Shown: positions 36,498-47,166, counted from the stretch's first letter. The stretch: 64,000 nucleotides of DNA from Candidatus Multivoradales bacterium (GCA_965223155.1 CBDCVR010000013.1:928001-992000), one strand, 5' to 3'. Numbers and translations are program-made. The notes: generated by a model not told the origin, from the letters alone.

Positions 36498-37907
36498 ATG
36501 AGCTCATCCGACGACACCACTCGACGGCGCTACGCCGGCGGCAACCGGGCTCCAGTCTCCGCCCGTCGAGCGCTCCTCGCGCTCGCGCCGCTGGCCCTGA
36601 CCCTCGTTGCGACCACCTTCGCGGTCGGCTGCGCGCCGCGATCCGAGGAGGCCTCCGTGGACGATGTCAACGCCCGGAACGTAACCCACCGCATCGCCGA
36701 GGAAACCGTCCGTCTGGCACTCGCCCTGGGACGCCACGACGCCGACTATGTGGACGCCTACCTCGGGCCCGAGGCCTGGCGCGCCGAAGCGGACCAGACG
36801 GCTTGGAGCCTCGAGCAGATTCGCGACCGAACCGACCACCTGATCGCCGAGCTGGCAACCGTGATTCCGCCTGCGGGCGACGAACTGGCCGCCGCCCGCC
36901 AGCGCTCCCTGCTCCGCACCCTGGAGAGCCTGCACGCCCGCAGCCGCATCGTCTCCGGCGAGCGCCTGCCCTTCGACGAGGAGGCCCGCCAACTGTACGA
37001 TGTCTCGCCCCCGAAGAAGGACGCGAGCGAGTTCGACGCCGCCCTCGCCAAGCTCGACCGGCTGCTGCCCGGCACGGGATCCCTCGCCGACCGCTTGAGC
37101 GCCTTCAAGGCGGACTTCGTCATTCCGCCGGACAAGCTCGACGAGGTCTTCCAAGCGGCCATCGAAGCCTGCCGGGAGCGCACCCGAAACCACATCGACC
37201 TTCCGGAGGACGAGAGCTTCGTCCTCGAATACGTCACCGACAAGGCTTGGAGCGGCTACAACTGGTACAAGGGCGGCTATCACAGCCTCATTCAGATCAA
37301 CACCGACCTTCCCATCTACATCGACCGCGCCCTCGATCTGGCCGGACACGAGGGCTACCCCGGCCATCACGTCTACAACGTTCTGGTCGAGCGGGACCTG
37401 GTCCAAGGGCGGGGCTTCCAGGAGTACCTCATCTATCCGCTCTTCAGCCCGCGCTCGTTGATCGCGGAGGGCAGCGCCAACTTCGGCCTGGACGTTGTCT
37501 TCCCCCACGCCGACCGGCTCCAGTTCGAGCGCGAGGTCCTGTTCCCACTGGCCGGTCTCGATCCCCAGCGGGTCGAGAACTACTACGCGGTCGATGAGAT
37601 CTTGAGCGAGCTCTCGTACGCCGGCAACGAGGCAGCCCGCGGGTACCTCGACGGCACGATGGATGCCGAAGCAGCCATCGGCTGGATGATGACCTATTCG
37701 CTCTCGAGCCGGGCCCGCGCCGAACAACGCCTGCGCTTCTTCGAGAAGTACCGCAGCTACGTCATCAACTACAACCTGGGCCAGGACCTGGTGCGCGATT
37801 TCATCGAGAGCGCCGGCGGCACGGCGGAGCAGCCGGATGAGCGGTGGCGCCTCTTTGCCGACCTGCTCTCACGGCCGGTGCTGCCATCCGAGCTCACCGG
37901 CGGCTGA
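36498..37907 (+). CDS. Lipoprotein, DUF885-like with HExxxxH metal-binding motif
   Basis: Lipobox AVGC; YVDAYLGP, WSGYNWY, GHEGYPGHH, IAEGSAN, YVINYNLG. Confidence 0.8.
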   Translation: MSSSDDTTRRRYAGGNRAPVSARRALLALAPLALTLVATTFAVGCAPRSEEASVDDVNARNVTHRIAEETVRLALALGRHDADYVDAYLGPEAWRAEADQTAWSLEQIRDRTDHLIAELATVIPPAGDELAAARQRSLLRTLESLHARSRIVSGERLPFDEEARQLYDVSPPKKDASEFDAALAKLDRLLPGTGSLADRLSAFKADFVIPPDKLDEVFQAAIEACRERTRNHIDLPEDESFVLEYVTDKAWSGYNWYKGGYHSLIQINTDLPIYIDRALDLAGHEGYPGHHVYNVLVERDLVQGRGFQEYLIYPLFSPRSLIAEGSANFGLDVVFPHADRLQFEREVLFPLAGLDPQRVENYYAVDEILSELSYAGNEAARGYLDGTMDAEAAIGWMMTYSLSSRARAEQRLRFFEKYRSYVINYNLGQDLVRDFIESAGGTAEQPDERWRLFADLLSRPVLPSELTGG

Positions 37908-37912
37908 TTCCC

Positions 37913-38620
37913 ATGCCCACGCCCGAAGCTCCGGCGGTCGACGTCATCGTTCCGATCCACAACGGCGAGCGTTATCTGGCCTCAGCGCTCGAAAGCGTTC
38001 TCGCACAGGACTACCGGCCGCTCAGGGTTACCGTCGTTGACGACGGCTCGACCGACGGCGGCGTCGAGATCGCCCGCGGATTCCCCGAGGTCCGCGTTCT
38101 GTCCCAAACCAATCTCGGCGCCGGCGCGGCGCGCAACCACGCCATTCGGGAGACCGACGGCGATCTCGTCGCCTTCCTGGACCAGGACGATCTCTGGACC
38201 GCCGACAAGCTGAGCGTCCAAGTCCCGTATCTCCTCGACCGGTCCGAGCTGGACTTCGTCTTCGCGCTTCAGGAGTGTTTTCTCGAGCCGGGGTCCAAGC
38301 TGCCGACGCCCCTGATTCGGAACTGGGTCTCGCGCAAGCTTTGGGAACGCAAGCTTCCCGGATTTCTCCCGGGCACCCTCCTGGTTCGTCGCCGCGCCTT
38401 CGACACCTACGGACTCTTCGACACCGGTCTCGAGGTCACCAGCGACGCCGAGTGGTTCTTCCGGGCTCACGACGCGGGCCATCCTCTCCACGTTTTGCAG
38501 CGGGTGCTCTTGAAGAAGCGCTTCCACAGCGCCAACCATTGCTACGAGACCGCCCAATCCCGCAACGAGCTTCTCCGCATCGTGCGCGCCTCGAGCCGGC
38601 GCAAGCTGGCTTCAGGCTGA
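37913..38620 (+). CDS. GT2-family glycosyltransferase
   Basis: VIVPIHNGERYL, VVDDGSTD, GAARN, AFLDQDDLW. Confidence 0.93.
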   Translation: MPTPEAPAVDVIVPIHNGERYLASALESVLAQDYRPLRVTVVDDGSTDGGVEIARGFPEVRVLSQTNLGAGAARNHAIRETDGDLVAFLDQDDLWTADKLSVQVPYLLDRSELDFVFALQECFLEPGSKLPTPLIRNWVSRKLWERKLPGFLPGTLLVRRRAFDTYGLFDTGLEVTSDAEWFFRAHDAGHPLHVLQRVLLKKRFHSANHCYETAQSRNELLRIVRASSRRKLASG

Positions 38621-39727
38621 CGACCGCAGCCGCGTCCGTCGGGCAGCCTCGGCGATGACGAAGACCGGCATTTGCCACAGGCCGTTCAGGCCCCACCGGG
38701 CCTGAAGGTACCGTAAGAATCCACCTCGGGCCTGGCCGCCGCCGGCCCTGCCCAGCCTGTAGTGCAGCCAATGGAACCGCAGCCGCCGCCAGGGCGTCCG
38801 AGGCAGGGTCTTGAGCTCGAACTCCCGCCGCTCCTCCCGGCTCGCCGGCAGCGCCCGGAGCTCCTCGAGAACCGCCTCCGGAATCTCGCGGCCGACCGAC
38901 CTCGCAAGGTAGTCGAGTCCGGCCTCGAGCGGAACAGTCAGCCGCCGACTCCTCGCTTCGGCGACCAGCCGGGCCCAGTCGACGGTGCCCGCCTCGAGCA
39001 CCGCGGCACTGTCGGCGACCCAGCGCAGCGGGGGGACCTCCTCCCAGCGCACGCCATGAACAATCGTGTGAAACAACAGGTGCGCCGCCGAGGGGATCGG
39101 CGCGGAGAGCTCGCCGAAGCGTACGACCTCGGCGCATTCCCAGACCTTCGCGTCCACTCCCTGCCGGCAACACTCCTCGAGCAGGTACCAGTGCAAGTCC
39201 AGCTCTGCGCCTCGATCATCCACGAACACGGTGGAATGGATCAGCGGCAACCGTACCCGGGCCAACGAGTACCGCGACCGCCAGCCCTTACTCAGCAGGA
39301 GGTCGATCGCCCGCTCCCGGTCCCGGGGCCGGACGAACAGATCGACGTCGGCCATGGCCCGAACGCCGGCATCCCGGTAGTAGCCGGCGGCCAGAGCCGC
39401 ACCCTTGAGCAGCATGCACTCGATGTCCTGCTTTCGGAAGGCCTCGATGACTTCGCCGGCCGACCGGAAGCCCACCTGGTTCTTGTACCAAACTAGCCGG
39501 CGCATGCCGCGCAAACGCCCCAGCTCGGAGGCGGGAACCCCGCGCTCGCGCAGGTTGCTGTAGGCCAACGCCAGCATCCGGTACGACCCGGCGTCGATGT
39601 CGGCAAATCCCACCTGCCGACGCCACCGGCGCCAGGCTTCGACCGCGGACGCGTCCCGGGCGAGCGCCGCAGTCAAGAGCAGTTCCTGCTCGGGAGTCGG
39701 CCAGCAATCGCGTGGACTCGCGCTCAC
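38612..39727 (-). CDS. NTP_transf_5-type nucleotidyltransferase family protein
   Basis: MLLKGAALAAGYY, RAMADVDLFVRP (DxD), ELDLHWYL; GTGA overlap with the kinase stop. Confidence 0.9.
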   Translation of the reverse strand: MSASPRDCWPTPEQELLLTAALARDASAVEAWRRWRRQVGFADIDAGSYRMLALAYSNLRERGVPASELGRLRGMRRLVWYKNQVGFRSAGEVIEAFRKQDIECMLLKGAALAAGYYRDAGVRAMADVDLFVRPRDRERAIDLLLSKGWRSRYSLARVRLPLIHSTVFVDDRGAELDLHWYLLEECCRQGVDAKVWECAEVVRFGELSAPIPSAAHLLFHTIVHGVRWEEVPPLRWVADSAAVLEAGTVDWARLVAEARSRRLTVPLEAGLDYLARSVGREIPEAVLEELRALPASREERREFELKTLPRTPWRRLRFHWLHYRLGRAGGGQARGGFLRYLQARWGLNGLWQMPVFVIAEAARRTRLRSSA

Positions 39728-40740
39728 CGTGCCGCTGCGGCCTCCGTCCCGAGTCCGTTCAGCAAGTCCTCGATCGCCGGCCCGATAGCGGCAAGATCGG
39801 GGCAGAGCTCGAAGCCGAAGGTGGGAACCTCACGCACCACGCGGGCGAGCCCCGCCAGCGCGGCCGCGTCCGCCCCAGGGCCCAGAAAGACCGAGGGACC
39901 GGCCAGGGCCGCCAGCGCCGTCCCGCGGCTCGCTGGAACCATCGCCGTCCTCTCCTTGCCGATCTCCGGCACCAAGATTGCGCGTAGCGGCGCCGCCGCG
40001 GGCAGGTGCTCCGTCCTGTCGGAACCCAAGAAGAGCAAGGCCTTCTCTCCGTCCGGCGTTGGCGGCACCGCCACCGAGCGCTCGAGCTCCGGCAGCCGTT
40101 CGAGCGTCCAGGCCTCGACCTTGGCCGAGACGTACAGCCTATGGACCATGGGCGGACTGGCGCCAAGGAGCACGTTGTCATCTCCCAGGTACGCAAGCCC
40201 GGATGCCCAGGCCGCCAGTGCCGTGGTCGACTTGCCCGAACCACTGCCACCGCAGATCGCTACGACGCCGTCCGACCGGCCCACGGCCGCCGCGTGCGCG
40301 AGTTGCAGACCTCGCGCCTCGCCCCACCAGCGCAAGAGATCGCGCAACGGAAAGCTGCGCTCGTGCACCGTCAGGGCGGCCGGCGATTCGATCCAGAAAA
40401 CGCCTGCACACCGCTCGGCGTCGAAGCCGGAGATGCTAGCGGTGCCCGGCTTGGCGGCCAGCCAATACCGCTCGCGACTCATTCCTCGCACCGCGCCGCG
40501 CACCGAGTAGTCGCTTCCGTGCCGGCGCGGCGGTGGCGGCTCGCAACCCGTGCTCGCCGTATCGAAGACCTGGACCACCAAGTCGTCACCGGAATCCGCG
40601 GTGGACGCGATCGCGTCATTCTGATGGGGCTCCTCCGGAAGCTTCCGATGCTCGAGCGCCGCGGTCAGAGGCTCGACCAGCGCCGGCCCGGAAAAGCGCA
40701 TCCGCACACGGCCGCCCGCGACTTCGAATCGGCGCTCCAC
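39724..40740 (-). CDS. HPr kinase-related P-loop kinase (PadeK/PsmK-like)
   Basis: QLAHAAAV, GGSGSGKSTT (Walker A), YLGDDNVLL. Frame is open upstream to about 40860, so the true start may be earlier. Confidence 0.88.
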   Translation of the reverse strand: MERRFEVAGGRVRMRFSGPALVEPLTAALEHRKLPEEPHQNDAIASTADSGDDLVVQVFDTASTGCEPPPPRRHGSDYSVRGAVRGMSRERYWLAAKPGTASISGFDAERCAGVFWIESPAALTVHERSFPLRDLLRWWGEARGLQLAHAAAVGRSDGVVAICGGSGSGKSTTALAAWASGLAYLGDDNVLLGASPPMVHRLYVSAKVEAWTLERLPELERSVAVPPTPDGEKALLFLGSDRTEHLPAAAPLRAILVPEIGKERTAMVPASRGTALAALAGPSVFLGPGADAAALAGLARVVREVPTFGFELCPDLAAIGPAIEDLLNGLGTEAAAAR

Positions 40741-40834
40741 GACTCCGGCGCAATGCTCGGCCCGGGAAGCGGTCTCCGCGAGCTTCGCGTAGTACCTCGC
40801 CGCGCTCGGACCGGCGCCGTCCCGGCCCCGGCCG

Positions 40835-41281
40835 TCAAGTACGATCGTCCGGCTCCTCGATCACCATCGGCCAGCCGCGGTCATCGACATCGTGGACCGG
40901 ATCCAGGAGCAACAGGTCCCGCATATCGGTGAAGCGATGGATCTCCGGGGGCTCGAAGCGCTCCGGATAGCTCGCGCCCGGGTTCCCGGATTCCGGCGCT
41001 CCGTCCTCCTCTTCGACCACCAGCTGATCCTCCCGGAGGACTTCGAGCACCGTCCGGACCCGAGCGGCCTGGTCCGGTGACAGAGCCCCATACCGGGCCT
41101 CTAGCTCCTTGAAGAGCCGGGCGTCGGTGGCGCCGTGTTCGTGCTGGGTCCAAATCGCCGCCGCCAGGCCGCGCAGGCAATAGTAGGTACCGCTGTCCAT
41201 GTCGATGATCACGGCTTCACCATCGACGATCTCGTCGATTACCCGCGGCCGGGCGATTCGATACCGAGGCTGAGCGACCAC
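40835..41281 (-). CDS. PqqD-family RiPP recognition element (RRE) with a C-terminal leader-like peptide extension
   Basis: EIVDGEAVIIDMDSGTYYCLRGLAAAIW...LEARY...LREDQLV, then linker and FEPPEIHRFTDMRDLLLLDPVHDVDDRGWP; TACGAT box 6 nt before GTG. Confidence 0.9.
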   Translation of the reverse strand: MVAQPRYRIARPRVIDEIVDGEAVIIDMDSGTYYCLRGLAAAIWTQHEHGATDARLFKELEARYGALSPDQAARVRTVLEVLREDQLVVEEEDGAPESGNPGASYPERFEPPEIHRFTDMRDLLLLDPVHDVDDRGWPMVIEEPDDRT

Positions 41282-41397
41282 CCCGGGATCGTACCCCAGA
41301 TCTCTGCTGCCGAAGGGACCTGGGGCCGGTGCGGGACTTGCAGGCTCAGGTCCGCGAAACCGCGCCTTGCTGCCCAGAGGCGCCCCGGAGCTTGACC

Positions 41398-42717
41398 ATG
41401 CCGCGAATTCTCTGCCCCCAGCGATCGACTCAGACCCGTACCCGATCCGAGCGGTGGATCCAGTTCGCGATCGCGGCCGTTCTCATCACTGTTCTCGGCG
41501 GTGGCCTTGCCGGCTGCGGCCGGGAGCGGCCGGCCGAGGTCGCCGCAGCCGAGGCCGAACCGGCACGGCTAACGCCATCCGAGCCGTCAGATCCGGTAGA
41601 ACCAGCGACTCGGCCCAGGGCCCAAGCCGGCGATCTAGGGGACGCGCCCGTCGATCCCGTCTCCGTCGGCCCGGGTCAGGCCAAACCGGGTCAGGCCAAA
41701 CCGGCTCTAGTCGAGCCGACTCAGATGGACCCGACTCAGGTAGACCCGGGCCCCGCGTCCCGCGCCGCCGATCCTCTGGCAGACGAGCGCGACCGGCTAC
41801 GCCGGCAGCAGGAGGCCCTCGACGCCGAACGGGCGCGCCTGGCCGAACGCCGGGCGATCCTGGTCGAGCGGGAGCGCCGGCTGGAAGCTCTCGAAGGCGA
41901 CGCCAACGTCCAGACGGCTGCTCCGGACTCCGCGACCGAACCTCGGATCGATCTCGAAGCGGGTGCCGCCACCGCGGATGAGGTCGAACCGGACGAAGTC
42001 GCGCCAGGCGATCCGGACTCCTCGGCTGACGCCGATCCCGACCTCCCCACCCACGAAGGCGCTCCCCAGGACGCCCCAGCGCCGCTCGAGCCCACCAGCC
42101 CCGAGCCGGCGGTCGCCCATTCTGAGTTCGATCCCGAGATCGATTCCGAGGACCTGCCGCCAGCCTCCGAAGCCGCTGTCCGTTCGCTCGAGCCGGGCCG
42201 GCTCCTGGAGATCGAGATCCTGGACACCTTGAGTAGCCGCACCCACCGCGTCGGCGACACCTTCGACGCCCGGCTGGTCCAGGAGCTTCGAGCCGAGGAC
42301 GGCACCCTCTTGGTACCGGCCGGCGCCCCGGTCGTGGGCGAAGTCACCCACGTCGTGCCGCTGAAGCGGGTCGGCGGCCGGGCCGAGCTGGACGTCGCCT
42401 TCACCCAGCTGGTTCTTGCTACAGGCGAACCGGTCTCCATTCGCGCCACGTTCGTGGCCCAAGGCAAGGACAAACGACGGGACAAGCGGAAGATTGCGGG
42501 AGCGGCCATCGTGGGAGCGATCCTGGGGCGGATTCTGGGCGACGGAGCCGAGGGCGCGGTCAAAGGCGCCGCCGCCGGAGCCGCCGCGGGAACCGCCGTC
42601 GTCGCTCGCGCCAAGGGGAAGGACGCGGTGCTTCCAGCCGGAGAGACCGTGGCGATTCAGCTGGAGGAAGTGGTCACGGTCGCGGTCGAGTATTCCGGGC
42701 CCGCCGATCCCGAGTAG
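41398..42717 (+). CDS. Hypothetical lipoprotein: low-complexity/coiled-coil N-half, beta-rich C-domain with glycine zipper
   Basis: Lipobox LAGC; LSSRTHRVGDTFDARL, LVPAGAPVVGEV, AGAAIVGAILGRILG...GAAAGAAAG. Confidence 0.75.
   Translation: MPRILCPQRSTQTRTRSERWIQFAIAAVLITVLGGGLAGCGRERPAEVAAAEAEPARLTPSEPSDPVEPATRPRAQAGDLGDAPVDPVSVGPGQAKPGQAKPALVEPTQMDPTQVDPGPASRAADPLADERDRLRRQQEALDAERARLAERRAILVERERRLEALEGDANVQTAAPDSATEPRIDLEAGAATADEVEPDEVAPGDPDSSADADPDLPTHEGAPQDAPAPLEPTSPEPAVAHSEFDPEIDSEDLPPASEAAVRSLEPGRLLEIEILDTLSSRTHRVGDTFDARLVQELRAEDGTLLVPAGAPVVGEVTHVVPLKRVGGRAELDVAFTQLVLATGEPVSIRATFVAQGKDKRRDKRKIAGAAIVGAILGRILGDGAEGAVKGAAAGAAAGTAVVARAKGKDAVLPAGETVAIQLEEVVTVAVEYSGPADPE
41671..41745. repeat. 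Two in-frame 15-bp tandem duplications (PGQAK x2; PTQMD/PTQVD)
   Basis: ccgggtcaggccaaa x2 at 41671-41700; ccgactcagatggac / ccgactcaggtagac at 41716-41745. Confidence 0.8.
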
Positions 42718-43575: not shown

Positions 43576-44157
43576 TTGCCGCGCTCGCTCGCCGACATCG
43601 ACTGGACCGCTTGGCGGCCGGTCGACCGGGCCACCCTGCTCTTCGTCATTCGCGGCGGACGCATCCTCCTGATCCGAAAGCTGCGCGGCCTCGGCGCTGG
43701 CAAGATCAACGGCCCAGGCGGCCGTCTCGATCCGGGAGAGACTCCGCTCCAGGCGGCGGTGCGCGAGACCGAAGAAGAGATCGGCATCGTGCCCTCCAAT
43801 CCGATCGCCTGCGGCGAGCTCCGGTTCCAGTTCACCGACGGCTACGCGCTGCACGGATACGTATTCCGGGCTGCCCGCTACACCGGATCGCCCCGGCCAA
43901 GCGACGAGGCGATTCCGCTCTGGACGCCTCTGGATGCCATCCCCTACCCGGAGATGTGGGCCGACGACGTTCTCTGGATGCCTCACTTGCTGGAAGGCCG
44001 CAGCTTCGACGGCCGCTTCCTCTTCGACGGTGACGTCATGCTCGACTCCGCCTTGGAGGTCGGTCCCGAGCTCACCCCGAACGCCGGCGCGTCCAAGGTC
44101 GATTACCCGTCAGCGGATCGTTTGGAGACCGACCAGACCGCCCGACGCAGGCGGTGA
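43576..44157 (+). CDS. NUDIX hydrolase (MTH1/8-oxo-dGTPase-like)
   Basis: KLRGLGAGKINGPGG, Nudix box GETPLQAAVRETEEEIG, MWADD. Confidence 0.9.
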   Translation: MPRSLADIDWTAWRPVDRATLLFVIRGGRILLIRKLRGLGAGKINGPGGRLDPGETPLQAAVRETEEEIGIVPSNPIACGELRFQFTDGYALHGYVFRAARYTGSPRPSDEAIPLWTPLDAIPYPEMWADDVLWMPHLLEGRSFDGRFLFDGDVMLDSALEVGPELTPNAGASKVDYPSADRLETDQTARRRR

Positions 44158-45833
44158 TGGGCGTCGAAGCGGCGCACGAAGTCCGACTCACGCACCCCTC
44201 CTTTCGCCCGGATGACTGCCACCAGGTCGCGCTTGTCGATATCGGGCCAGCGGTCGACGCCCGGGACCACGCTTACCAGTGGCGCCCACCGACTCCAAGC
44301 GGAGCGCTCGGCCGCCGGCCAGCGCCGGCGAGAGCCGGCACCCAGCAGCTCTGCGGTCCGCTCAGCGCACTCGCGCAGACCCCGCTCCCGATCGGCACCG
44401 TAGCGCTCGGCCAGAAAGCGCCCGATAGCGAATCCGACCGCCTCGCGTGAGAAGCCGCTCAAGCTCTGCCGGCGCGGGCGGCCCAAGTCCAGGACCATCT
44501 CGGCCGACGCCAGGCGCGCCAGAGTGGCTCGGCTCGACCGGTAACTCGAGCGCCGAGCCAGCCGCCCAGTCTCTCGATCGGCAAGCTCTTGGACCTCCTG
44601 GTCCCGGGGGCGAAAGCCGAGCTTGTAGTAGAACCACCAGGCCCCGGAGTCGAGCGCCTCGGGATTCCCGTCGCCCAGTTGGTAGGTCTCGATGACGAAG
44701 CTGTCGGCGCCAAAGGTTTCCCGCACCATCGCCAGCCCGCGCCCGTAGACGTAAGCGGCCTCGGCGCCCCGAAACGTCGGGAAGACGTTGAACGCCACCA
44801 CCGCCGAGCGGAAGAGAGCGCTCGACAGGAAGTACCCGATCGGCATTCCGTTCTTGAGGATCAAGAAACCGTAGACCGCGTCCAGCATCTGCCGTCGATC
44901 CGGAACCATGCCGTAGCACGCGAACTGGAGTCCCCGGCCGCAATCCAGCAAACGAAGATCTCGCCGGTCGGCATGGATGAAGACATCCAGGTCGCGCTCC
45001 CGGGCGATCATCGCCGAGCGCGCGAGCGCCATGAGCCGGCGTCCTTCGGCACCGGTCGCGGCCCGTGCCGCCCGCGGCGGCCGGCGCACGGCCGAGGCGA
45101 AGGCCCGCCGCGAGGTCTCGAGCGGACCTTCCTGGTAGGCGATGTTCGCGCCCGGCCAGCGTGCCCGGCTGCGGCTAGGCGTCGTCGGCCCAGCCGCGAG
45201 CCGGAAGGGGATATCGACCTCCTCGAAGAGCCGCTCGCGCCAGACGGAACTACCCGGCATCGCCGCGAACCGCCGCACCAAGAACGATCCGTCGCTCTCG
45301 GTCTCGGCCTTGAGCCGATCCAGCCATTCCCGCACCGGCAAGGCGACTTCCTCGAGCGCCAGCGACTCCGAACTCGACATCAAGAGCGGCAGACGCCGCT
45401 CGAGAAGCTCGAGGGAGCGCTCGTCCGTGAACGCTTCCCAGTCGATCGACAACTCACCCGGCCAGCGCCGCGCCAGAAGCAGCGCCGTGTACCAGAAGAA
45501 CCGGTAGTCGATCGGAGTCCCGGCGATACCGCTATTGGCCAGCTCTTCCCGGAACCAGCCGAGATCGTCGCGGCCGGAAAAGCCGTCGAGCATCGACTCC
45601 ACCTGCCGCAGCATTTCCGCACTGTCGGGATACGCTCGAAGGAAGCACAGCACTTCGTGCAGGCGAGCGACCAGCCCGGCGCTGCCCAGCCGGCAGCCGG
45701 CGAGCGCTTCGAGCAGCCTCAGTTTGCTCGCTGCGGAGGTCCCGCCGTACGTGCGCGCCAGGCCCTCCAGCCGGCGCAGCCGGTCGGCTGCCGGGCGTGG
45801 CCCGAGGTGCTTCCGCTGCCCGGCGCCAGCCAT
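44103..45833 (-). CDS. Large hypothetical protein with a possible C-terminal GNAT-like segment
   Basis: LHEVLCFLRAYPD; LKNGMPIGY...FNVFPTFRG...GAWWFYYKLGFRP; ATG 45833 lies 10 nt after the NTPDase stop. Confidence 0.8.
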   Translation of the reverse strand: MAGAGQRKHLGPRPAADRLRRLEGLARTYGGTSAASKLRLLEALAGCRLGSAGLVARLHEVLCFLRAYPDSAEMLRQVESMLDGFSGRDDLGWFREELANSGIAGTPIDYRFFWYTALLLARRWPGELSIDWEAFTDERSLELLERRLPLLMSSSESLALEEVALPVREWLDRLKAETESDGSFLVRRFAAMPGSSVWRERLFEEVDIPFRLAAGPTTPSRSRARWPGANIAYQEGPLETSRRAFASAVRRPPRAARAATGAEGRRLMALARSAMIARERDLDVFIHADRRDLRLLDCGRGLQFACYGMVPDRRQMLDAVYGFLILKNGMPIGYFLSSALFRSAVVAFNVFPTFRGAEAAYVYGRGLAMVRETFGADSFVIETYQLGDGNPEALDSGAWWFYYKLGFRPRDQEVQELADRETGRLARRSSYRSSRATLARLASAEMVLDLGRPRRQSLSGFSREAVGFAIGRFLAERYGADRERGLRECAERTAELLGAGSRRRWPAAERSAWSRWAPLVSVVPGVDRWPDIDKRDLVAVIRAKGGVRESDFVRRFDAHHRLRRAVWSVSKRSADG

Positions 45834-45843
45834 CACCCAGCGG

Positions 45844-47166
45844 TCAACGGTCCCCGGCCAGCTCGAACAGCAGAGCGCCCAGGGTCCAACCCACTTTCCG
45901 GCCCTGGACCCGAAACGGCGCGTGCACGCGATCGCTGTCGGCAGGGAACCCGAAGACGTCCTCGAGCAAGGTCGCCGCATAGGCGGCACCGAAGCAATAG
46001 CGGGGCACGAACAGATTGTCGGCGACCTCGGGGTCTTCGGCGACCAGATCCTGCCAGCTGCCGGCGCAGAACTCCCGGCCTCTTTCGCTTAGCGCCTGCG
46101 AGTCGATCGCGCCGTCGAGGGCCAGAAAATCGGCCGTGTAGGCGTAGGCCGAGAACGCCAGGAAGTCGCCATAGAGAGGCGGTTGGTAGACACCGAAGAG
46201 CGTGCACGGCTCGTCCTCGCAAGGTTGGGCAAGCGCCTCCCGAATGGCCGTCCGGCAGTCATCGAAATCGCCGGTGCCGGTCCCCAACCCATCGACCGGG
46301 TAGCCGGCTGGAAAGCAGGCGTTCGAAGCCACCGCGTCTCGGGCCACGTCCTGGCCCAGTCCGAGATAGCTGTGCGAGTAGAGCGGGTAGGTCTTGCCCC
46401 CGATCCGAAGCTCCACCAACCCTTGCCGCGGCAGATCGAGAGGCACGAACGTAATCTGGGTCGAGCCTCCACCCAGGTCGAGCGCGCCGACCGTCGGAAA
46501 AGCTCCGCCGTGCTCCAGATGGCCCAACAAGTAGTTGACCGCGAGCCAGCCGAAGATTCCCTCCTCGGTACCGCTGATCACTCCGGCGGAGCTCGCGCCA
46601 AAGGGGCTCTCATCCAGAAGTCCGCTGACCGCGCCGAGGATGGCCGCTTGTTCGTCCTCGCCCAGCAAACGCAGGCCGGCGGTCGCCCGCAGATAGACCG
46701 ATGTCCGCGCATGCTCGCCCGCGGGCACGTTCGCGGCGGCGAACTGGAGCAGGGGCAAGAGCGAGCGCGCCGCTTCGTCGGCCCTGCCCGCGTAGGCAGA
46801 CAGGCCCGGACGCACCTTGGCTTCCCAGGGCTCGCCGCCGGGAGCGAGCGGATAGGGCGCCGGCTCGATCCTGGGTAGGAGCTTGCCGGGACGCCACTGG
46901 AAGATCTCGAGGCTCGATGCGCTACTCGAGGCGTCGATCACCAGCGCCCACCGCCATGGCTCCTCCTCTGTCTCCGAAAGCCCCGGCGTGACGACGCCCC
47001 AGTCCGCTGCCTCCGGCGCGGGACTTCCCGGCGCCGGACTCTCGGGCGCGGGCAGGCCCGAACAGCCGAACACCACGGCGGCCACCGCCAGCGCGGCTCC
47101 TAGCCGCGCCGGCAGCGCGAACGCGGCCGGCCCGGAACGGCCCTTCGGCCTCACGGTGCCGCCCAT
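45844..47166 (-). CDS. GDA1/CD39-family NTPDase (apyrase), probable lipoprotein
   Basis: ACR1-like IDASSSASS, ACR2 ATAGLR, ACR3 ISGTEEGIFGWLAVNYL, ACR4 DLGGGSTQ, ACR5 WTLG; lipobox VFGC. Start at 47166 or GTG 47154. Confidence 0.9.
   Translation of the reverse strand: MGGTVRPKGRSGPAAFALPARLGAALAVAAVVFGCSGLPAPESPAPGSPAPEAADWGVVTPGLSETEEEPWRWALVIDASSSASSLEIFQWRPGKLLPRIEPAPYPLAPGGEPWEAKVRPGLSAYAGRADEAARSLLPLLQFAAANVPAGEHARTSVYLRATAGLRLLGEDEQAAILGAVSGLLDESPFGASSAGVISGTEEGIFGWLAVNYLLGHLEHGGAFPTVGALDLGGGSTQITFVPLDLPRQGLVELRIGGKTYPLYSHSYLGLGQDVARDAVASNACFPAGYPVDGLGTGTGDFDDCRTAIREALAQPCEDEPCTLFGVYQPPLYGDFLAFSAYAYTADFLALDGAIDSQALSERGREFCAGSWQDLVAEDPEVADNLFVPRYCFGAAYAATLLEDVFGFPADSDRVHAPFRVQGRKVGWTLGALLFELAGDR

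Follow-up and report, generated by a model that had tools for sequence, protein, structure and literature searches.

The 64,000-nucleotide stretch of Candidatus Multivoradales bacterium analyzed here (GCA_965223155.1, CBDCVR010000013.1:928001–992000, or C13:928001–992000; hereafter the window, with positions counted from its first nucleotide) carries, at 37844–41281, a set of four genes that is one copy of a widespread and conserved operon. The set comprises a PqqD-type recognition element (RRE) for peptides made on ribosomes and modified after translation (RiPPs) that bears a C-terminal tail, an HprK-like P-loop kinase, an NTP_transf_5 nucleotidyltransferase (NTase), and a convergent GT2 glycosyltransferase, and it has the look of a hitherto undescribed relative of the recently reported phosphorylated-peptide pathways. 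Among known systems it comes nearest to the linear polyphosphorylated peptide (LPP) clusters of Bacillota (Popov et al., Nat Commun, May 2026; PMC13381572). The reading preferred here, at a little under even confidence, is that the RRE-tail protein acts as a self-presenting carrier that is phosphorylated and then glycan-extended on its own tail. What was computed, namely gene content, conservation, co-occurrence, catalytic motifs, and predictions of the fold and of the complex, is set out before that reading is weighed.

The tail of the 148-amino acid (aa) RRE protein (40835..41281, minus strand) reads F109-E-P-P-E-I114-HRFTDMRDLLLLDPVHDVDDRGWP138...T148, and the consensus of the family is F/Y-x-x-P-x-L-x-K/R-Y/F-T-D-M-x-D-L-L-L-L-D-P-I/V-H-E/D-V-D-x-x-G-W-P, followed by 3–35 variable residues. 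The initial annotation had likened this region to the leader motif of lasso peptides, a parallel that is strengthened by the conservation of F/Y-x-x-P-x-L across 72 tails and by its predicted docking in cis. In the window protein this leader-like motif is F109-x-x-P112-x-I114 (40940..40957, minus strand); among the 72 tails its first position is Phe in 60 and Tyr in 9, its Pro in 71, and its last position Leu in 52, Phe in 14, and Ile in 5. The conserved core that follows, R116–P138 (40868..40936, minus strand), is described by [KR][YF][TS]DMx[DE]LLLLDP[IV]H[DE]V[DE]xxGWP, and eight of its residues are invariant in all 72 (D119, M120, D127, P128, H130, G136, W137, and P138), which dispels the concern that the tail might prove unconserved. 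Alignment of the first eight homologues, all of which carry the tail, placed 14 of 21 invariant columns within residues 117–138. In the homologue alignments the tail is more strongly conserved than the RRE domain, and the 25 residues after the YxxPxL segment are more strongly conserved than YxxPxL itself. This conserved region is bounded by a variable linker (residues 92–108; 40958..41008, minus strand), for which the family alignment has no consensus residue and no secondary structure was modeled, and by a C-terminal end (residues 139–148; 40838..40867, minus strand) that differs in length and sequence, its last residue included, among 150 representatives.

It had been proposed that PqqD proteins with such a tail be sought and their neighbors tabulated. 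The tail-only profile (40 positions), searched against 1.84 billion representative proteins, recovered 3141 protein clusters with the threshold set at E ≤ 0.001 and 1833 when this was tightened to E ≤ 1e-10, and the neighboring genes recur in the 80 loci considered below. At 50% identity, these 3141 clusters are distributed among the Actinomycetota, Chloroflexota, Cyanobacteria, Acidobacteriota, Gemmatimonadota, Proteobacteria, and others. Among the 150 best tail matches listed, 102 are at least 120 aa in length, and in 98 of these the Pfam PqqD domain lies N-terminal to the tail; of the remaining four, three are without any Pfam family, one has a HAD fragment in front of the tail, and two of the four look chimeric. 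These two proteins (P0024 and P0076) bear a foreign N-terminus, in one case a piece of a HAD hydrolase and in the other a segment resembling the N-terminal region of the kinase, and may be assembly chimeras or rare rearrangements. The 48 best matches shorter than 120 aa were considered as stand-alone tail peptides that could represent true precursors, and were taken for fragments or miscalled starts because most of the 25 examined begin in the last RRE helix or in the linker. A dedicated search for longer fused forms of the tail protein found none, which is weak evidence, and no second exact copy of the tail was found elsewhere in the genome.

A scan of species-representative genomes identified at least 215 relatives, of which the best 80 loci, from many phyla, were analyzed. 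Using the window proteins as tblastn queries, the kinase was detected in 71 of the 80 loci, the GT2 in 71, and the NTase in 58, while clustering of open reading frames (ORFs) assigned the PqqD-tail protein to 75 loci, the kinase to 70, the NTase to 54, and the GT2 to 70, the last with 155 copies at one to six per locus. The commonest layout (12 loci) is PqqD-tail > kinase > GT2 > NTase plus a convergent GT2, from which the window departs in lacking the first GT2 while keeping the same convergent NTase/GT2 pair (NT5+/GT2− in that layout). Inclusion of the GT2 in the module, as first suggested, is thus borne out by its relatives in 71 of 80 loci and by the convergent pair of the commonest layout. 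Accessory genes vary among the 80 loci and include sulfotransferases (10 loci), epimerase/dehydratase genes (19 loci), and ATP-binding cassette (ABC) exporters of the type found in locus L036 (14 loci), with short-chain dehydrogenase/reductase (SDR) enzymes, methyltransferases, GT1 enzymes, and DUF6817/HD proteins in a few loci.

These accessory genes bear on the simplest alternative, an ordinary polysaccharide locus in which the GT2 and NTase make a surface glycan and the PqqD protein and kinase are functionally unrelated neighbors. Such an assignment would account for the resemblance of the GT2 to glycan-extending enzymes, and for the epimerases, sulfotransferases, and SDR enzymes of some loci, and it has a parallel in the LPP clusters that lie within capsule loci (PMC13381572), but it is very improbable given that adjoining or overlapping genes in the order PqqD-tail > kinase > GT2 > NTase recur across phyla, that a kinase-GT2 fusion exists, and that no flippase, polymerase, or priming transferase adjoins the four genes in the window. 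The fusion is a 628-aa protein (L094:14004–15887) with Hpr_kinase_C at residues 198–240 and GT2 at residues 406–509; long kinase ORFs also occur in L075, L080, and L069.

The absence of a separate precursor ORF, first noted for the window, extends to the related loci, as ORF clustering revealed no small ORF in or beside the clusters that is conserved beyond single lineages, with the reservation that hypervariable peptides could escape such clustering. Next to the PqqD-tail gene, conservation of a small ORF was seen only in the Solirubrobacterales loci (L026–L089), where a 72-aa ORF, with its alternative frames, lies ~200 bp upstream and the operon follows it directly; this ORF appears to resemble translation initiation factor IF-1. 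Another lineage-restricted cluster of small ORFs (10 loci) lies downstream, near 13 kb. A sample of 200 other genomes from the phylum contained 7 with the operon, and it was found in no genome among the 16 listed for the same class; this patchy distribution suggests that it has spread horizontally.

The operon also appears without the machinery of lasso peptide biosynthesis. The initial annotation reported no cyclase and no transglutaminase-like peptidase in the window, and, consistent with this, none of the matches of the genome to Asn-synthase-type proteins (PF00733) or Transglut_core3 (PF13471) falls inside the window; the sole Transglut_core3 match of the genome is at C15:1163494. Two cyclase-like proteins (C13:851.5k and C15:887.3k) and the peptidase of this genome served as lasso queries (tblastn, E ≤ 1e-4), and neither a lasso cyclase nor a B2 peptidase was detected within about 8 kb in any of the 80 related loci. 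Among five other host genomes examined, three had no Transglut_core3 match, with genome completeness not reported for this set. In the genome itself there are three Asn-synthase-type loci (C13:850900–853900, C13:804100–805900, and C15:886400–889300), and each is adjoined by an HprK-like match (C13:850.9k, C13:804.1k, and C15:889.1k), two of the three also with a PqqD gene. The lasso-type loci therefore have no need for the kinase of the window, which counters the concern that a true precursor and cyclase elsewhere in the genome are the real partners of the operon. Collectively, the independence of the operon from the lasso machinery is supported.

The same observations bear upon a trans-acting tailoring set, in which the PqqD protein would be an ordinary RRE and a separate precursor, either the lasso peptide of the organism or an unrecognized small peptide, would be encoded elsewhere. 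The LPP precursor is a separate gene (PMC13381572), the genome does contain Asn-synthase-type loci with PqqD genes, and hypervariable small precursors may escape ORF clustering. However, the Asn-synthase-type loci are each provided with an HprK-like neighbor and in two cases a PqqD gene, the cyclase and peptidase are missing from all 80 loci at the distance examined, three of five operon-carrying genomes lack a Transglut_core3 match, and modeling predicts an RRE groove already occupied in cis, so that this explanation is considered unlikely.

The prediction of a filled groove derives from an AlphaFold2 (AF2) monomer model built from a 72-row alignment, with a mean predicted local distance difference test score (pLDDT) of 86. 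The model contains a winged-helix, lasso B1-like RRE fold at residues 6–91 (41009..41266, minus strand; pLDDT 95–98), a linker, and a strand at residues 113–117 (pLDDT about 91). The best Foldseek matches are TbiB1 (5v1v, with E 1.3e-4 and TMt 0.83) together with the lasso B1 protein 6jx3, both of which are leader-bound structures. Since all of the other modeled strands belong to the RRE, strand 113–117 is inferred to pair with the RRE sheet in cis, in the manner of a leader peptide. Confidence is lower through the linker (mean pLDDT 73 for residues 91–100 and 86 for residues 101–110) and lowest for residues 121–148 (57–67), as would be expected if this region orders only on a partner.

A complex model computed from the kinase and RRE-tail alignments supports predicted binding between the two proteins, with a score of 0.81 compared to 0.00 for the best of three controls. 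Solved complexes attain the 0.81 level in 116 of 157 cases and mismatched pairs in 2 of 215, a calibration that is only rough as our own alignments were used. Contact agreement between runs was at least 52% and partner pLDDT at least 75. The modeled interface joins residues 271–303 and P-loop residues 165–167 of the kinase to RRE residues 12–37 and tail residues 115, 117, 119–120, and 123–124; the output does not give which tail residue is nearest the P-loop. The structural test that had been suggested alongside the initial annotation thus returned a FxxPxI segment docked on its own RRE and tail residues 115–124 placed at the kinase, both as predictions.

The kinase (39724..40740, minus strand; 338 aa, GTG start) has no Pfam match and only weak NCBIfam matches to HprK-related kinases B and A, but the profile of its family matches solved HPr kinases (1jb1, E 1.9e-5) over the H..GxxGxGKS..DD region, and the catalytic motif is complete, in agreement with the earlier assignment as HPr-like. 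Its P-loop, G164–S171 (GGSGSGKS; 40228..40251, minus strand), was located from the ORF sequence and an alignment of 43 sequences, in which H149, G164, G167, G169, K170, S171, D187, and D188 are invariant. The lasso kinase BsfK has the same pattern, H148..D187, and alanine substitutions of these residues have been tested (PMC10368454). The NTase (38612..39727, minus strand; 371 aa; Pfam PF14907, E 2e-42) agrees with the family majority at K108-G109, D127-x-D129, and D177. No solved sequence relative of the NTase was found; its AF2 model (pLDDT 91) is nearest in fold to MenT1, LnuA, and ANT(2'')-Ia, which are small-molecule and tRNA nucleotidyltransferases, and more weakly resembles the ribitol-phosphate transferase FKRP. 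The GT2 (plus strand, ATG at 37913 within an ORF open from 37844, to 38620; 235 aa; Pfam PF00535 Glycos_transf_2, E 1.2e-30) has soluble, glycan-extending GT-A enzymes as its solved relatives and is itself classed as soluble. With their motifs intact, the kinase and NTase look active.

Placed among known systems, the combination of parts is less singular than first thought. The initial annotation called the set the best candidate for a novel system, an overstatement given that an RRE, an HprK-like kinase, and an NTP transferase without a cyclase have already been published as the LPP family (PMC13381572). In that family LppK phosphorylates the precursor LppA, placing several phosphates on Ser3, and the NTP transferase was inactive in a heterologous host; the precursors carry YxxPxVLxHQxIxFETxxS, and the clusters often lie inside glycosyltransferase-rich capsule loci (PMC13381572). 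The two systems are alike in having an RRE, an HprK-like kinase, and an NTP transferase with no lasso cyclase, in a YxxPx[V/L]-type leader, and in glycosyltransferase-rich surroundings. The NTP transferase of the LPP clusters (LppN) is uncharacterized, and the one here belongs to NTP_transf_5 (PF14907).

They differ in that the LPP system is defined through an archaeal-type signal peptidase (LppS) and has a separate precursor (LppA) and an MsbA-like exporter (PMC13381572), whereas the operon described here has its leader-like motif fused to the RRE and followed by a different sequence, no separate precursor that could be found, GT2 genes within the operon, and a distribution across many phyla outside the Bacillota. 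A model for the LppS-type, SpI-like peptidase (TIGR02228) has no match in this genome, which is 98.66% complete; a Pfam scan found no peptidase among 44 neighboring proteins of eight loci, and in the window the four genes have no ABC exporter next to them.

Lasso tailoring offers a second comparison. In that chemistry a kinase phosphorylates the C-terminal Ser of the precursor and a nucleotidyltransferase is linked to the addition of a hexose on the phosphate (PMC8498205), and the HprK-like kinase BsfK works much faster with the RRE BsfB1 (PMC10368454). The kinase family and its H-G-G-G-K-S-D-D motif, present in the 43 sequences, are shared with the paeninodin, pseudomycoidin, and bsf clusters, the motif being compared with the BsfK pattern of PMC10368454, and the nearest NCBIfam models for the RRE in 71 of 72 members are the lasso PqqD chaperones. 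The B1-type fold and a cis F/Y-x-x-P-x-L segment, predicted to bind, are likewise lasso-like; in contrast, the precursor, B2 peptidase, and cyclase of paeninodin-type clusters are all missing from this operon, and the acceptor sites given for those clusters (C-terminal Ser and core Ser3) are not conserved.

Other systems that pair HprK-like and PqqD-like proteins, namely HPr-rel-A (TIGR04352 kinase and TIGR04353 PqqD), GeoRSP, and SynChlorMet, gave weak matches. The HPr-rel-A system also holds a nucleotidyltransferase. The window proteins fall below the curated HPr-rel-A cut-offs, at 22 versus 200 bits for the kinase and 20.6 versus 35 bits for the PqqD protein; such curated cut-offs were applied to the proteins of the window, and the other members were judged by E-values. 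For the family as a whole, the NCBIfam models gave no match beyond weak similarity, the best being to lasso PqqD chaperones and HprK-related kinase A. The operon thus resembles LPP, lasso tailoring, and HPr-rel-A, yet lacks defining features of each.

In the mechanism that may connect these elements, a lasso-B1-type RRE carries, beyond a variable linker, its own leader-like F/Y-x-x-P-x-L segment followed by ~25 almost invariant residues. This segment would fold back into the RRE groove in cis, and the C-terminal helices and P-loop face of the kinase would then be bound jointly by the RRE sheet and the beginning of the tail. The RRE-tail protein would be both adaptor and substrate, a self-presenting carrier. 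The kinase would phosphorylate the tail, upon which NTP_transf_5 and one to six GT2 enzymes would then build a phosphate-linked glycan, by chemistry modeled on that reported for the paeninodin, pseudomycoidin, and LPP peptides. We infer that the tail is modified at all, as well as the residue that accepts the phosphate, the reaction catalyzed by the NTase, and what becomes of the product. A self-presenting RRE-precursor had already been suggested in the initial annotation; its conserved leader-like tail and predicted placement at the kinase have stood up, and modification of the tail remains a proposal.

Two of the acceptor residues originally put forward can be judged from the alignments. The C-terminal Thr148 was ruled out as acceptor, since what follows GWP differs in length (3–35 residues among the 150 representatives) and in its last residue. 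The Thr of FTDM is weakened as well: Thr118 lies between modeled interface residues, but the residue before Asp-Met is Thr or Ser in only 61 of the 72 tails.

Several observations weigh against the tail as a substrate, beginning with this same position. It is Asp (5), Asn (3), Lys (2), or Ala (1) in the other 11 tails, and although Thr or Ser also predominates among the representatives (140 of 150), the exceptions overall include D, N, K, A, V, and E. Ten of the 11 loci without Thr or Ser there keep the full H..GxxGxGKS..DD motif of the kinase, the eleventh having no kinase ORF in the kinase cluster, and no hydroxyl residue is invariant in the tail. By our own count on the published motifs (PMC13381572, PMC10368454), the phosphorylated Ser3 of LppA and of BsfA lies ~19–20 residues from the Tyr of YxxP, and the equivalent position here would be the invariant Asp127-Pro128, which offers no hydroxyl. 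A near-invariant "core" is unlike most RiPP cores, the use of one RRE molecule per product is costly, and neither a conserved peptidase in the loci nor an exporter in the window was found. Finally, the structural evidence consists of predictions throughout, and the tail beyond residue 124 has no confident placement in either the monomer or the complex model.

These points make a serious rival of an adaptor or activator, possible but less probable than the carrier, in which the cis leader keeps the RRE "loaded" and the tail is a docking or pseudo-substrate peptide. The tail would then assemble or activate the kinase, NTase, and GT2, which would act on some other target, be it a leaderless peptide, a sugar, or else a glycan linked to a lipid. 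An adaptor would explain why no tail hydroxyl is invariant, why Asp-Pro sits at the site phosphorylated by known kinases of this type (PMC13381572, PMC10368454), and why the kinase remains intact where Thr or Ser is lost; the extreme conservation would be typical of an interaction motif, the tail stays constant across loci that differ in GT2 copy number and in their accessory sugar genes, and leader-bound RREs are known to activate partner enzymes (work cited within PMC10368454). Activation alone, however, predicts that YxxPxL would be the conserved part, and it is the following 25 residues that are more conserved. There is also no conserved candidate gene for a second substrate, and the modeled proximity of the tail to the P-loop is as compatible with a substrate as with a pseudo-substrate.

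A further variant, regarded as improbable, would retain the tail as substrate under the logic of a self-priming carrier similar to glycogenin, with phosphorylation at an unusual acceptor (possibly the invariant Asp127 or His130 of LDP[IV]H in place of a Ser or Thr) and phosphodiester extension into a lineage-specific glycan by the NTase and one to six GT2 enzymes. If true, this would reveal a large unrecognized class of RiPP-derived phosphoglycoproteins over many phyla.

RREs are seen as adaptors for leader peptides that are separate molecules, and a large natural family with a leader and conserved "core" fused to the RRE, as in the carrier preferred here, would constitute a new architecture for this chemistry. 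Literature searches, with subscription papers outside their scope, found no description of an RRE fused to a leader-like tail. The function of NTP_transf_5-type enzymes is not revealed by the LPP or bsf studies (PMC13381572, PMC10368454), and this family provides a fixed, easily expressed substrate candidate with which to work it out. The operon is also carried by the cultured Anabaena and Cronbergia, so that a product can be sought directly. As such, the family should be of interest to RiPP and glycobiology specialists and is directly testable.

The genes, overlaps, and tail sequence first described for the window were reproduced by ORF calls and a nucleotide check. The sequence GTGA at 39724–39727 is common to the kinase stop and the NTase start, the NTase overlaps the convergent GT2 by 9 bp (38612–38620), and the GTG start of the kinase is preceded by GGAG 2 nt upstream. 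All three Pfam assignments exceed their gathering thresholds, at 31.2 versus 23.4 bits for PqqD (PF05402, residues 22–88, E 2.8e-7), 146 versus 31.2 bits for NTP_transf_5, and 107.1 versus 23.3 bits for Glycos_transf_2. The GTG start at 41281 is favored for the RRE-tail gene because alignments to PqqD homologues begin at residues 1–8 of the 148-aa protein. A stored gene prediction (P0001; 121 aa) begins at Met28, inside the first RRE strands, and is taken as truncated because the homologues reach upstream to this GTG. A promoter and terminator scan of 37500–41800 found no promoter-like site. None of the 80 related loci contains a relative of either flanking ORF (36498..37907 and 41329..42717), and the module is therefore taken to be the four genes. 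The first of these flanking ORFs (plus strand; 469 aa) and another long ORF at 44103–45989 (minus strand; 628 aa) gave no Pfam match at E ≤ 0.01.

A second, diverged cassette is present in the same genome at C14:350000–359000, its PqqD gene being that of locus L002. It encodes a 146-aa PqqD protein with the tail YRAPELEKFTDMEELLALDP, after which the end is different, together with an overlapping HprK-like kinase, two GT2, an NTP_transf_5, and a sulfotransferase. This divergence indicates that the first half of the tail is shared more widely than the remainder. On a separate 25-kb contig (C7:75–1184), pieces matching the C14 tail with equal score, and the kinase, occur in three separate frames, and these look like a duplicate of the C14 cassette that is broken or was misassembled.

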